DNA of 64,000 bases from Puniceicoccaceae bacterium. GTDB taxonomy: Bacteria; Verrucomicrobiota; Verrucomicrobiia; Opitutales; Oceanipulchritudinaceae. The position numbers and the translations under genes are program-made. Shown here one piece after another: positions 49,684 through 61,809 of this stretch. How positions within the stretch are numbered: position 1 is the stretch's first letter; the number at the start of each line of letters is the position of its first letter. The notes beneath the pieces were generated by a model. That model searched no databases. It saw only the letters and a program-made list of their open reading frames with translations, and had not been told where the DNA came from. The stretch lies in NCBI GenBank assembly GCA_040830765.1, contig JBFOMH010000004.1, positions 1-64,000 on the forward strand, written 5' to 3'.

Positions 49684-49710
49684 TTGACATGATTTTTACA
49701 TTTGTAAAAC
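49684..49710 (+). promoter_or_regulatory. Candidate sigma70 promoter (TTGACA) overlapped by the perfect palindrome TTTTACA-TT-TGTAAAA
   Basis: TTGACA at 49684-49689 and palindrome at 49694-49709. The SD-like AGGAGA lies just upstream of the ATG at 49751. Confidence 0.55.
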
Positions 49711-49750: not shown

Positions 49751-50518
49751 ATGGCGAAACCAAAACCACTCATACTGATCGTCGAGGACGATCCTGAACT
49801 TGCCCAGTTGATTTCCGACCAGCTGGAATCGGCAGGAATGCTGACCCAGGTCCATCACCGGGCCGCCAACGTTACCCGCTACCTGCAGAACAACTTTGCC
49901 AACCTGATGTTGCTGGACGTCAACCTTCCGGACCAGTCGGGATTTGCCCTAGTTGACACCCTCAAGCAGGAGGACATCGACCTTCCGGTCATCTTCCTGA
50001 CGGGTAACGACAGCGAAACGGACCGCGTCAAGGGCCTGGAAATGGGCGGAGACGACTACATTACCAAGCCCTTCAGCTTCAGTGAGCTGGTGGCCCGGAT
50101 CAATGCCGTCCTGCGCCGCGCGGAGACCTCCAAGGATGACAAGGTGACCAAGAACGCCAGTGTCTCGGAGGAACCCTTTGAGTTCCAGGGGGCGATGGTG
50201 AATCCGGAACGGATGGAAATCGGCTTCCCGGATGGGGAGTCGGTCAAGATTGGGCGCAAGGAACTGGGCATCCTGTCCTTCCTCAATTCCAATCCGAACA
50301 CGGTCATCACCCGCCGGACCCTCATCCACGGCGTCTGGGGCATCCATGCCGACGTCCGCAGCCGCAGTCTTGACCAGTACATCGTCAAGGTCCGGGGCCT
50401 CTACCAGAAGCACGGACTCAACCTGGATGCGTTCAAGACCATCCATGGTGTGGGCTACATCTACAACACCGAGGGGGAGGCGGATGAAGCCGAGTCCACG
50501 GAGAGCCCGGTAGAGTAG
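49751..50518 (+). CDS. OmpR/PhoB-family DNA-binding response regulator
   Basis: Receiver domain with VEDD, phosphoacceptor LLDVNLP, FLTG and YITKPF. Winged-helix output with HGVWG, RSLDQYI and TIHGVGY. Confidence 0.94.
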   Translation: MAKPKPLILIVEDDPELAQLISDQLESAGMLTQVHHRAANVTRYLQNNFANLMLLDVNLPDQSGFALVDTLKQEDIDLPVIFLTGNDSETDRVKGLEMGGDDYITKPFSFSELVARINAVLRRAETSKDDKVTKNASVSEEPFEFQGAMVNPERMEIGFPDGESVKIGRKELGILSFLNSNPNTVITRRTLIHGVWGIHADVRSRSLDQYIVKVRGLYQKHGLNLDAFKTIHGVGYIYNTEGEADEAESTESPVE

Positions 50519-50529
50519 GCTCCCTGCCC

Positions 50530-51186
50530 ATGGAACTGGAACCGAAAACGATCCGGGTCCTTGGAGCCCTGATGGAGAAGGCCCGTACAACCCCGGAAAG
50601 CTACCCCCTTACCCTCAACGCGCTGGTCCATGCCTGTAACCAGAAGACCAGCCGGGACCCCGTGACGGACTATGACGAGGACGAGGTACTGGACGCGCTG
50701 GACGCGCTGCGGGAAATGGGATTCGTCATGCGGGTCGATCTGGCCGGCTCACGAACCGCCAAATTCCGGGAGAACCTGAGTACCCAATGGGACCTGAGTG
50801 CTGAAGAATATGCCCTCCTGGCCACCCTCTTCCTGCGGGGTGCACAGACCCCCGGGCAGCTCCGCCAGCGTTCCGACCGCATGCACCCGTTTGCTGACTT
50901 GCAGCAGGTGAATGATTGTCTGCACCAGATGCAGGAACGGGAGGAAGAGCCGCATTGCCTCGTCCGGTCGCTGGAACGCGCCGCCGGGACCAAGGAGATC
51001 CGCTGGGAACACACCTTTTTACCGGAATCCGCCCCGGCAGCTGGGATTGTTGAAGAGGAGGAGCAGAAACTTCCACCCCCGCAAAACCAGCAACCCAGCC
51101 GGATTGACCAGCTGGAGGAAAGACTGGCGGCATTTGAAAACCGCCTCAAGGCCATCGAGGAGCTGCTCCATGAGCTCAACGACTGA
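50530..51186 (+). CDS. yceH: YceH family protein (DUF480)
   Basis: RVLGALMEKARTTPESYPLTLNALVHACNQKTSRDPV and LRGAQTPGQLRQRSDRMHPF, plus a C-terminal coiled coil. Confidence 0.9.
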   Translation: MELEPKTIRVLGALMEKARTTPESYPLTLNALVHACNQKTSRDPVTDYDEDEVLDALDALREMGFVMRVDLAGSRTAKFRENLSTQWDLSAEEYALLATLFLRGAQTPGQLRQRSDRMHPFADLQQVNDCLHQMQEREEEPHCLVRSLERAAGTKEIRWEHTFLPESAPAAGIVEEEEQKLPPPQNQQPSRIDQLEERLAAFENRLKAIEELLHELND

Positions 51187-52492
51187 ACCCACGGGGAACG
51201 GTCTGGTTCTCCTCGACCACAAGACGGTCATCAAGGGGAAGTTTCCACCACTGGAGGTCTATCCGCTTGATGCCCCGACCGGATCCGCCTGGGTGGGTGA
51301 GTTTGACGGAAAGGTGGCATGGCTGTCACTGGGTGACCTCGACGAAAACGCCATCCGCCGATACTGGAAAGGGGAAGTCCGGATCGCAGATGAAGGCCGC
51401 ATCGGTCCTGGGGACCTGTTTGAGGCTTTCCAGGGACAAGCCCGGCTGGAACTGGTGCCCGTCGGGACTGCGTTCCAGCTGTCGGTCTGGCAGGAGCTGG
51501 TTCGTATTCCTTTTGCCACTACACTGACCTATGGGGAACTGGCCGAACGGCTTGGCTCGCCTTCCAAGGCAAGGGCTGTCGGCACGGCAGTGGGGGCCAA
51601 CCCCATCGCCTGGCTCATTCCCTGCCACCGGATCCTTCCGGCTGGGGGCGGCATTGGCAGCTACCGCTGGGGCAGCGCGATCAAGGAGAGCCTCCTGAAC
51701 TGGGAAAACCAGCCCCATCCCACCGGCGCTCCCGATCAGGATGTCGAGGACATCCGCAAGCTGGAAGCGATGCTGCTCAATGCCCAGCGCTTTGAGGACA
51801 TCGCCAAGCTGGCCGGGCACATTGCCCATGACTTGAACAACCTCCTCGCCCCCATCCGGATGGCGACCGAGTTACTGAAGCGCAAACTGGAAGATGATTC
51901 GGTCGGGCGTTATGTGGAAATCATCGAGACCAGTACCGGCCGGGCCCGGGCGGTGATCCAGGAAATCCTTACCTATGCGAGGGAATCGGAAAGCGCGGAC
52001 GCGGAAGTGATCGACATCAACCAGCTTCTCGAGGAACTGGAAGGTCTGGCAGATGATACTTTCCCGGATACGATTACCCTGTCATTTGACTATGATCCGG
52101 AAACTCCCCTGGTGAGCATTGCCCCGCACCAGCTGCACCGCTCCATCCTCAATCTTCTGGTCAATGCCCGGGACGCCATTTCCGGCAGCGGCGAAATCCG
52201 GGTCAAAGTCAGCACCCATGATTTGGAAATGCGGGTCTGCGTCGGGGACCGGTGCATTGTCCCGGGACGTTATGCCTGTATTTCCGTTTCGGATACGGGT
52301 TGTGGCATCAGTCCGGAAATCCGGGAGGAAATATTTGATCCCTTCTTCACCACCAAGCCGAAGGAGAAAGGTACGGGCCTCGGGCTGGCCTCGGTCTTCG
52401 GGATCATCGCCCGATCGGGTGGATTCATCGACCTCGAATCAATCGAGGGCAAGGGCTCGACATTCCATCTGTTCCTGCCTGAAGCAGGATGA
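51170..52492 (+). CDS. Fusion protein: methylated-DNA--protein-cysteine S-methyltransferase (Ogt) plus histidine kinase (HisKA-HATPase_c)
   Basis: Ogt part: GTAFQLSVW..L..IP...TYGELA..LG.P..ARAVG.A...NP....IPCHR...YRWG..K..LL.WE. Coiled-coil linker, then AGHIAHDLNNLL, NLLVNARDA, DTGCGI, IFDPFFTTK and GTGLGL in one uninterrupted frame. Confidence 0.92.
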   Translation: MSSTTEPTGNGLVLLDHKTVIKGKFPPLEVYPLDAPTGSAWVGEFDGKVAWLSLGDLDENAIRRYWKGEVRIADEGRIGPGDLFEAFQGQARLELVPVGTAFQLSVWQELVRIPFATTLTYGELAERLGSPSKARAVGTAVGANPIAWLIPCHRILPAGGGIGSYRWGSAIKESLLNWENQPHPTGAPDQDVEDIRKLEAMLLNAQRFEDIAKLAGHIAHDLNNLLAPIRMATELLKRKLEDDSVGRYVEIIETSTGRARAVIQEILTYARESESADAEVIDINQLLEELEGLADDTFPDTITLSFDYDPETPLVSIAPHQLHRSILNLLVNARDAISGSGEIRVKVSTHDLEMRVCVGDRCIVPGRYACISVSDTGCGISPEIREEIFDPFFTTKPKEKGTGLGLASVFGIIARSGGFIDLESIEGKGSTFHLFLPEAG

Positions 52493-52500
52493 ATGGCCCG

Positions 52501-52800
52501 TTATTCCTTTTTCTCAGGAGCAGCTTCTGCCTCGGGGGCTTCCGCAGCGGGCGCCGGTGGCGGCACCTCTTTGGCGGCTGGTGGAGCCGGCTTCTTTTCC
52601 GGCTCAACGGAATCCATGGCTTCCTGAAAATCGTCCTGCACTTCCTGGGCGGCCTTCTTGAATTCCTTCATGGACTTGCCCAGCCCCTTGGCCAGTTCCG
52701 GAAGCTTCTTGGCCCCAAACAAAAGCAGAATGATAACAAGGATAATCAGCAGCTCGGGACCACCGAAACCCTGAATAAATGCTGGATGGAGTAAATTCAT
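52501..52800 (-). CDS. tatA: Twin-arginine translocase subunit TatA
   Basis: [38 protein letters not shown] with a Pro/Ala/Glu-rich tail. Confidence 0.93.
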
Positions 52801-52934
52801 CAACTTCAACCATAAGGTGGGCGGGGCATCTGTAAAGGATAAGAAACAGCTGCCATGGAATGCCGGGAATGTTCTTCGCGCTTGCAAAGTCGCCCGGCCA
52901 TTTGCTTCCTTTGTAGGGGAAGTTTCCCACTGCC

Positions 52935-60720: not shown

Positions 60721-61809
60721 ATGGGCGCATTCCCCGAAAGTCGTCCAACCACATCCCCCGATACGAAGCAAGCAGCGCTGATATGCCCGGAAGATGTGGA
60801 TTGGATTTTTGACGTTGATACACTCCGTTCCGCCGGAGGGGAAACGTTGATGCGGCTACATGGATTGGAAGAGGCGCCGAAGGACTATCCCCACTATCCC
60901 TTTAACCTGAGCAACAGCTCTGCCGTCATCTGGGACCAGACGGTCCGGAAGCTTTCCATGGCAGCCGGGGAATCCCACCTCATCGTCACCGGGCACAGCC
61001 GCAGCGAGGCCCAGGACATTGTCTTCTATGCCCGCATCGCCGGATACCGTGAGGAAGGCCTGCCGCGGATTGCCGCCACTTTCCAGAAGATTGACCAATC
61101 GAGTTACCAGACGGTAGCCGACTCCACCCGTCAAAACTGGCTCTATCTCCTTCACGAGATCAAGAACCCGATCTCCATCCTCAAGACCGCCGAGGACCTG
61201 GAGTTCCAGAAGGCGACTGGTGGAGTGAGTCCCGAAGAGGCCTCCCAGACCCGGCTCTTTGCCATGGCCTGCCTCGAGGACCACCTGCGCAACGGGGTCT
61301 TCCTGGCCACTGAGGATTCACGGATGATCCCCAGTCACCCTGAGCCGCTTGACCTGAAGATCTTCCTCGACGATGTCCGCGCAACCTTCCAGACCCTCCT
61401 GCGCCTGCAGAATAACACACTGGAAGTGAAGCTGGATATCGACACCCACCAGGTTGCCCGGATCGACCGCACCCTGCTGGCCCAGCTGCTCAATAACCTT
61501 CTCCTGAACAAGATGAACGTCCTCCAGGGAGAGACCGTTGTCCTCGAGTGCTCCCTCGGCAGTTCGAGGCATGACGGAAGCGGGACCCACCTTGTCATCA
61601 CCATCGAGGACGAGGGACCGCCCTTCCCGGAATTTGTCCTCCACGGCGGTGAACAGGAAATCAACCTTGAGGGCCTCCTCCAAGTGCAGCGCAGCTCCGG
61701 TTTAGGCTTGCCGATTTGCCGAAGAATTGCCTCCGTAATGGGAGGAGAAATCAAGTTCTACAACGATGCGCCAAAAACCCGCATCCGTATCTGGTTGCCC
61801 CTTGAATAG
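60721..61809 (+). CDS. Atypical cytoplasmic histidine kinase
   Basis: H-box LHEIKNPI, N-box QLLNNLLLN, degenerate G1 box DEGPPF, no clear F-box, G2 box SSGLGL...MGG. Confidence 0.7.
   Translation: MGAFPESRPTTSPDTKQAALICPEDVDWIFDVDTLRSAGGETLMRLHGLEEAPKDYPHYPFNLSNSSAVIWDQTVRKLSMAAGESHLIVTGHSRSEAQDIVFYARIAGYREEGLPRIAATFQKIDQSSYQTVADSTRQNWLYLLHEIKNPISILKTAEDLEFQKATGGVSPEEASQTRLFAMACLEDHLRNGVFLATEDSRMIPSHPEPLDLKIFLDDVRATFQTLLRLQNNTLEVKLDIDTHQVARIDRTLLAQLLNNLLLNKMNVLQGETVVLECSLGSSRHDGSGTHLVITIEDEGPPFPEFVLHGGEQEINLEGLLQVQRSSGLGLPICRRIASVMGGEIKFYNDAPKTRIRIWLPLE

Follow-up and report, generated by a model that had tools for sequence, protein, structure and literature searches.

The window analysed here is a stretch of 64,000 nucleotides from a Puniceicoccaceae genome (G000; assembly GCA_040830765.1, contig JBFOMH010000004.1), and it carries a gene in which an O6-alkylguanine alkyltransferase (Ogt) and a histidine kinase are joined in one protein, P0001. 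The locus reads DEAD helicase, gluQ-like, 5'-3' exonuclease, hisG, hisE, regulator, DUF480, kinase, tatA, deaminase and AI-2E, an order that is constant across the genus wherever contigs reach. The fusion gene starts within the end of the DUF480 gene, with an overlap of 17 nt, and an overlap of the DUF480 stop with the start of the kinase gene recurs in every state of the locus that was checked. Elsewhere in the window, positions 60721-61809 encode a soluble kinase-like protein of 362 aa with a HATPase_c match, no HisKA match and a degenerate ATP lid. Feature coordinates are given in Table 1.

Table 1. Features of the fusion locus, in positions of the window
Feature	Position	Strand	Basis
Palindrome TTTACA-TT-TGTAAA, probable operator	49695..49708	.	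Conserved; flanked by hisE and the regulator gene, which diverge
OmpR-family response regulator, first gene of probable operon	49751..50518	+	Pfam; order-wide
DUF480 (YceH-like) gene directly upstream of the fusion	50530..51186	+	Pfam; synteny
Ogt-HisKA-HATPase_c fusion gene, protein P0001 (440 aa)	51170..52492	+	One stop-free frame; Pfam
Alkyltransferase N-terminal domain, about residues 26-95	51245..51454	+	Structural alignment to 1sfe, 4bhb, 1mgt and 1eh6 from residue 26-29
Alkyltransferase C-terminal domain, residues 96-179	51455..51706	+	PF01035; Tyr121, Arg135, Asn144, PCHR, Lys172, Glu179
Variable Pro-rich tether, residues 180-195	51707..51754	+	Least conserved segment; pLDDT <50 at 183-189
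Pre-H-box helix, residues 196-212	51755..51805	+	Shared with sensor-less and PAS-bearing orthologs
DHp domain, residues 213-272, His220 (51827-51829) in HDLNN	51806..51985	+	Pfam; alignments
ATP-binding CA domain, N/G1/F/G2 boxes	51986..52486	+	Pfam; alignments; closest solved fold CckA 5idm/5idj

P0001 matches DNA_binding_1 (residues 101-180, E 2.8e-28), HisKA (213-272) and HATPase_c (319-439), and no further Pfam family at E≤0.1, neither PAS nor REC; no transmembrane segment was seen on inspection of the sequence and of the predicted model. An earlier note on this DNA had described a single continuous frame with a complete Ogt, an intact kinase core and no transmembrane or PAS domain, and the stop-free frame, the Pfam and TIGR00589 matches and the structural alignment all uphold that description. 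The codons that it named for the active-site cysteine (Cys152, TGC, 51623-51625) and the phosphoacceptor histidine (His220, CAT) are also correct. The junction, at which it saw a chimeric assembly to be excluded, is bridged without a gap by contigs of two runs from two studies (X2, 49765-52926; X3, 51603-52787). Some of the runs containing the fusion stretch are labelled as mollusc metagenome. Contigs from RNA libraries cover the gene as well, a kind of coverage that cannot show transcription. Because contigs bridge the junction and 52 other protein clusters from five source collections, among the matches listed, have Ogt plus HisKA in one chain, the fusion is confirmed as real and not a chimera. 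An assembly or gene-calling artefact, in favour of which nothing was found although the window comes from an uncultured genome, is refuted by the same two lines of evidence and by synteny in seven genomes, and we regard it as practically impossible.

The first 100 residues of P0001 have no Pfam match. In the AlphaFold2 model (mean pLDDT 87.1, pTM 0.53), residues 26-182 align with the whole two-domain E. coli Ada-C (1sfe; Z 19.6, rmsd 2.2, 155 aligned residues), and the same region aligns with M. tuberculosis OGT (4bhb; Z 17.4) and with 1eh6 (Z 15.2); by this alignment to whole two-domain alkyltransferases, the N-terminal domain of Ogt is present. P0001 scores 92.4 bits with TIGR00589 ogt (cut-off 46.4). 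P0001 thus shares with Ogt/MGMT (PF01035, TIGR00589; 4bhb, 1sfe) the two-domain fold, Tyr121, the arginine finger Arg135 of the helix-turn-helix (HTH), the Asn144 hinge, the PCHR site with Cys152, Lys172 and Glu179, and differs from them in that its alkyltransferase is fused C-terminally to a histidine kinase. Its active site, IPCHRI, agrees with the motif I/V-PCHR-V/I given for AGTs in PMC10779285. R135, N144, P151-R154, K172 and E179 are kept in 52/52 rows of the family alignment, as is PCHR, and Y121 in 51 of them, the remaining row having a gap; the mean column identity of the Ogt core is 0.73. In alkyltransferase-like (ATL) lesion markers the active-site cysteine is usually exchanged for tryptophan. 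ATL proteins are also described as being without the Asn hinge (PMC10779285), and an ATL marker is excluded here by the invariance of Cys152 and Asn144. The intact residues suggest that the Ogt half carries out ordinary suicide repair of O6-alkylguanine.

The kinase half scores 44.6 bits with PF00512 (cut-off 26.9), and the best structural match of model residues 207-440 is CckA (5idj/5idm; Foldseek E 1.2e-19, 36% identity; VIA Z 22.3-22.4). H220, D221 and N224, together with N328, N332, D375, G377, G379, F389, F392, G403 and G405, are invariant in 61/61 kinase rows (44 fused, 10 sensor-less and 7 PAS); that is, the kinase boxes are invariant in the fused and sensor-less rows and the catalytic residues in the PAS rows too. 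Mean column identity of the DHp domain is 0.82, and the 10 sensor-less rows have kept the H-box, the DHp surface that follows and the ATP boxes as well as the 44 fused rows have. The CckA/NtrB-type core with H, N, G1, F and G2 boxes that had been reported for this gene is therefore sound. With the Caulobacter CckA class (NtrB-related) P0001 shares the fold, the HDLNN H-box and, putatively, an ancestor of the PAS-kinase-REC hybrid type, but it differs in having no transmembrane, PAS or REC domain; orthology to CckA is ruled out by this absence of PAS and REC and by scores of 187.8 and 181.2 bits against an NCBIfam cut-off of 1000. It would be a soluble kinase/phosphatase of the CckA/NtrB class, its activity being predicted.

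The earlier note placed a coiled-coil linker directly after Ogt. A helix is present, but it is separated from Ogt by about 16 residues of variable, Pro-rich tether. The tether has the lowest mean column identity of all segments (0.29), is 12% Pro with at least one Pro in 44/52 rows, and is of low confidence in the model. The spacing from Glu179 to His220 is 41 residues in 32/53 members and ranges from 31 to 44, with ten different lengths that are not helical steps. The pre-H-box helix is shared by PAS-bearing and bare orthologs and mostly deleted in three fused members (P0050-P0052), which does not bear out the proposal that it transmits a signal from Ogt; it was inherited from the PAS-kinase ancestor. 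The join is better described as a tether than as a signalling helix, the modal spacing of 41 being left unexplained, and such a tether would be compatible with control by unfolding and proteolysis. A complex prediction of the Ogt domain with the kinase dimer scored 0.01, which is no answer either way.

To follow the spread of the architecture we used residues 20-260 of P0001 as query, which gave 3635 matches among 7999 scored candidates. Of the best 120 rows, the first 53 have PF01035 and HisKA, and 52 have HATPase_c as well; the exception, P0039, is partial and was left out of the family alignment. The 52 aligned rows, of which P0044-P0052 are divergent, have 43-87% identity to P0001, and the catalytic positions of both halves are invariant or nearly so, showing an architecture conserved among relatives with each half intact. 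The fused proteins carry source names such as Puniceicoccaceae, Oceanipulchritudo sp. and Puniceicoccales bacterium CK1056, from which the genus is probably Oceanipulchritudo. A kinase ortholog (E≤1e-60) is present in G000 and in 10/12 other genomes of the genus, and in 0/24 genomes from other genera of the family; with the outgroup kinase P0122 as query, 11/401 genomes of the order matched, 10 of them inside the genus. On these searches the fusion appears confined to one genus of Opitutales and to one syntenic locus.

An independent Ogt-kinase fusion was not found in thresholded searches, which could miss a fusion to another kinase class. Of the top 150 rows from a profile search, 147 lie outside the family, and none of these has PCHR or PWHR; no kinase domain occurs in the 25 non-family Ogt proteins above 385 aa (65 matches, 810 candidates). 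A search for Ogt in proteins above 455 aa gave no match among 733 candidates, which is weak evidence. Generic kinases overwhelmed a scan of metagenome loci with the family alignment, and one apparent match from residue 18 (L065) is a PAS kinase. The Ogt-protein search also returned fusions with PF00730 (AlkA-like) and with HTH domains. Among its other products were an HTH_10/Sigma70_r4 plus Ogt fusion (P0274, 8 members), an apparently frameshifted tandem double Ogt (P0268) and an ankyrin plus Ogt protein in a yeast (P0284).

Across the 12 genomes of the genus with the locus (G003, 84% complete, gave no match) three states were observed. The fused state occurs in 7/12 (G000, G001, G004, G006, G007, G010, G012). 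In the sensor-less state (3/12; G005, G008, G009) a bare kinase of 263-277 aa, with no input or receiver domain, comes straight after DUF480 (L043 9150-9930, L045 8230-9020, L046 9190-10010). In the split state (2/12; G002, G011) DUF480 is missing, and the regulator is followed by an ogt that stands alone and ends in its own stop, then by a PAS-like kinase; free and fused Ogt share 44% identity along 154 residues, N-terminal domain included, and the kinase has at its N-terminus a different domain, about 130 residues long. This domain also heads P0124, which has no REC, and the nearest outside relatives P0122, P0125, P0126 and P0131, which consist of the N-terminal domain, the kinase and a terminal REC. 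It is PAS_3-like by Atlas (score 0.96; 7/30 matches PAS_3, 23 unnamed), a lead that comes without an alignment.

In a kinase-core tree of 61 rows, rooted on four PAS-kinase-REC rows after 10 near-duplicates and 6 distant outgroups had been dropped, the PAS forms without receiver branch first, fused and sensor-less rows form one group (SH-aLRT 94), and all 10 sensor-less rows are nested in the subgroup containing P0001. A tree of seven neighbour genes, rooted on the split pair as chosen from the kinase-core tree, agrees with it and gives the split pair, G001, G004/G006/G012 and then a group of G007, G005, G000/G010 and G008/G009 (82/93). In a first kinase tree, with six distant outgroups and midpoint rooting, the split form had fallen within the fused group; this tree was set aside because the tool flagged the meeting of long branches, and with near outgroups the split form falls outside. 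The sensor-less genes keep the DUF480 overlap and start like the fused genes before they jump to the pre-H-box helix, which points to a clean internal deletion. The history reconstructed from the sequences leads from a PAS-kinase-REC protein to a PAS-kinase beside ogt, then by one deletion to a single fusion in which Ogt replaced PAS, and finally to in-frame loss of Ogt by a later deletion at least once. Several independent losses are not claimed: parsimony needs 4 changes, but one clade stands in a test of 9 rows against 47 (p-AU 0.61, after four long-branch rows and P0116, whose call may be truncated, had been dropped), and the loss may have been one event.

Selection was compared between the closest pairs of each state with our own Nei-Gojobori script. 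The dN/dS of the kinase was 0.054 in the fused pair (G000/G010), 0.075 in the sensor-less pair (G008/G009) and 0.062 in the split pair (G002/G011), dS being near saturation in the last two. Relative to four control genes, kinase dN was 1.30-1.99 in fused, 1.64-2.26 in sensor-less and 1.65 in split comparisons, so that the states overlap, the highest rate (2.26) belonging to one sensor-less pair. The fused Ogt core had a dN/dS of 0.077 (G000/G010) and the free Ogt 0.19; a stronger constraint on the fused form is not supported, as the relative rates overlap (1.64-3.61 fused; 3.44 for the single split pair). The sensor-less kinases are thus conserved under similar selection, which suggests that the kinase has a job independent of Ogt in the same chain. 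The earlier argument that Ogt, as the only candidate, must be the input domain does not hold, since orthologs in 3/12 genomes have no N-terminal domain at all and are under purifying selection.

In G001 (68% complete), G004, G006, G012, G002 and G011, PF01035 matches nothing but the ogt of the locus, the two matches in G012 being halves of one gene on two contigs. Repair alone explains the invariant PCHR, because in G001, G004, G006 and G012 that only match is the fusion. A second alkyltransferase gene occurs only in the derived clade, as a full Ada (G000, G010), as AraC-Ogt (G007, G008, G009) or as a remnant (G005), and Ogt was lost in 3/6 genomes of this clade and in 0/6 elsewhere. The loss being possibly one event, this pattern, a small one, is not independent evidence; second alkyltransferases of the AraC regulator type would, moreover, make a sensor redundant too. 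G005 (100% complete) has kept the kinase and seems to have no intact alkyltransferase, its sole PF01035 match being a 46-residue remnant. This remnant (L054 2152-2520) comprises the last 46 positions of the PF01035 profile joined to an unrelated broken frame.

All fused and sensor-less loci have DUF480 and both split loci lack it, a distribution by which its arrival may have roughly coincided with the fusion. The OmpR-type regulator upstream is 77-97% identical within the genus and occurs in 68/121 genomes of the order, single-copy in nearly all matches and mostly without this kinase. It usually adjoins hisG with no adjacent kinase, and it persists in genomes of 0.8-1.0 Mb with 2-4 candidate matches, which makes it a candidate core regulator of Opitutales. 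Within about 1.5 kb downstream of the regulator no kinase or ogt was found at any of 28 loci of other genera, one of which has an upstream kinase match; five reduced genomes have the regulator and two kinases whose best matches in G000 are other genes. G000 itself has 35 receiver matches. A pairing of regulator and kinase is unsupported by the wide occurrence of the former without the latter. The core pattern of the palindrome recurs at 11/11 other loci of the genus and at 3/28 loci of other genera, and the 14-mer occurs once in G000; TGTAAA half-sites upstream of the regulator are visible in several more loci of other genera. A palindrome-defined regulon was rejected, G000 having 8 half-site clusters and none at ada. 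In the comparisons of palindrome, regulator and reduced genomes, nothing ties the output of the kinase to repair genes.

We give a slight preference to a bifunctional protein in which Ogt repairs DNA and the kinase needs no input in cis. On this account an in-frame deletion would, once, have joined ogt to the kinase core of the next gene, removing the PAS-like domain; the Ogt half, on its flexible tether, would carry out its suicide reaction. The kinase would have one and the same function whether the ortholog carries PAS, Ogt or no sensor, and would therefore require no input domain in cis; ATP/ADP or a trans-acting partner probably sets its activity. The sequences establish the fusion with its spread and history, selection acting on each half, and the survival of the kinase where Ogt was lost; that both halves are active, and act uncoupled, is our inference. 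Against two separate jobs stand the durability of the fusion across 43-87% identity, a spacing of exactly 41 in so many members, more than a free tether needs, the low dN/dS of the fused Ogt core in G000 and G010 despite their full Ada, and the place of Ogt exactly where the sensory PAS domain was.

That replacement of PAS at the input position and the modal spacing, together with a catalytic Cys, His and Glu invariant in 52/52 rows, speak for a kinase that senses alkylation, a reading that we find doubtful. Methylation of Cys152 would open or destabilise Ogt and either free the DHp helix from a restraint, or place one on it, or lead to proteolysis of the whole chain, a route that needs no rigid linker; output would fall or rise with the alkylation dose, and the sensor-less kinases would be constitutive derivatives. 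Alkylation destabilises AGTs and triggers degradation of the human, mouse, yeast and archaeal proteins, and its extent in other organisms is given as not established (PMC10779285, section 3.3). In its most specific and equally tentative version, each methyl on Cys152 might switch or destroy one kinase subunit, a one-shot chemical counter from which a two-component pathway would read the dose; it is conceivable, if unlikely, that this pathway runs via the order-wide regulator two genes upstream, as a phosphorelay adaptive response distinct from Ada. Against sensing stand the kinases retained under similar selection without Ogt (G005, G008, G009), the variable tether and deletable helix, the single origin with no convergent case found, the operon palindrome not found upstream of ada, and a PCHR fully accounted for by repair. 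What had been presented as a candidate DNA-alkylation sensor kinase therefore stands as an architecture, real, conserved and intact on both sides, but not in the step to an input domain.

A still less probable reading is that the sequence-independent DNA binding of Ogt keeps the kinase dimer on the nucleoid, or gathers it there in clusters, regardless of alkylation, altering local kinase activity or access to a DNA-bound regulator. The conserved HTH and arginine finger, a suitable flexible tether and flanking genes for a winged-helix regulator and DUF480 agree with it, and AGTs bind DNA non-specifically, with the N-terminal domain aiding cooperative binding (PMC10779285); the sensor-less and PAS-bearing orthologs manage without it.

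Among known systems, E. coli Ada also joins an alkyl-accepting protein to a regulatory module. Ada differs in that its signal passes through a Zn-cysteine domain at the N-terminus and a switch in DNA binding (PMC10779285), and not through its O6-alkyltransferase cysteine; P0001 has neither an N-Ada nor an AraC domain, and since only its three Pfam families match it is not an Ada-type regulator of the adaptive response. G000 has a separate full Ada besides the fusion. AGTs fused to endonuclease V, to a histone-like domain and to the regulator of Ada are described in PMC10779285. In AGTendoV and AlkA-Ogt, as in P0001, an intact alkyltransferase is joined to a second working protein, but their partner is a repair enzyme, whereas that of P0001 is a signalling kinase, formerly a neighbouring gene. 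Full-text literature searches, covering open papers mainly, gave no published account of an Ogt-histidine kinase, in line with the earlier remark that no characterised protein of this architecture is known.

The architecture is thus real, old, of genus level and apparently undescribed, and it is more likely a two-job fusion than a proven sensor of DNA damage. If coupling were true, this would be a histidine kinase that reads DNA damage when its input domain is covalently and irreversibly modified, and an alkylation biosensor could take it as a natural template. Without coupling, the locus still offers an unusually clean natural series at one syntenic place, from PAS-kinase-REC through PAS-kinase and Ogt-kinase to the bare kinase, and a single assay could use all four forms as controls. 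The series would then show that occupying the input position does not make a domain an input, which bears on the inference of sensors from architecture.
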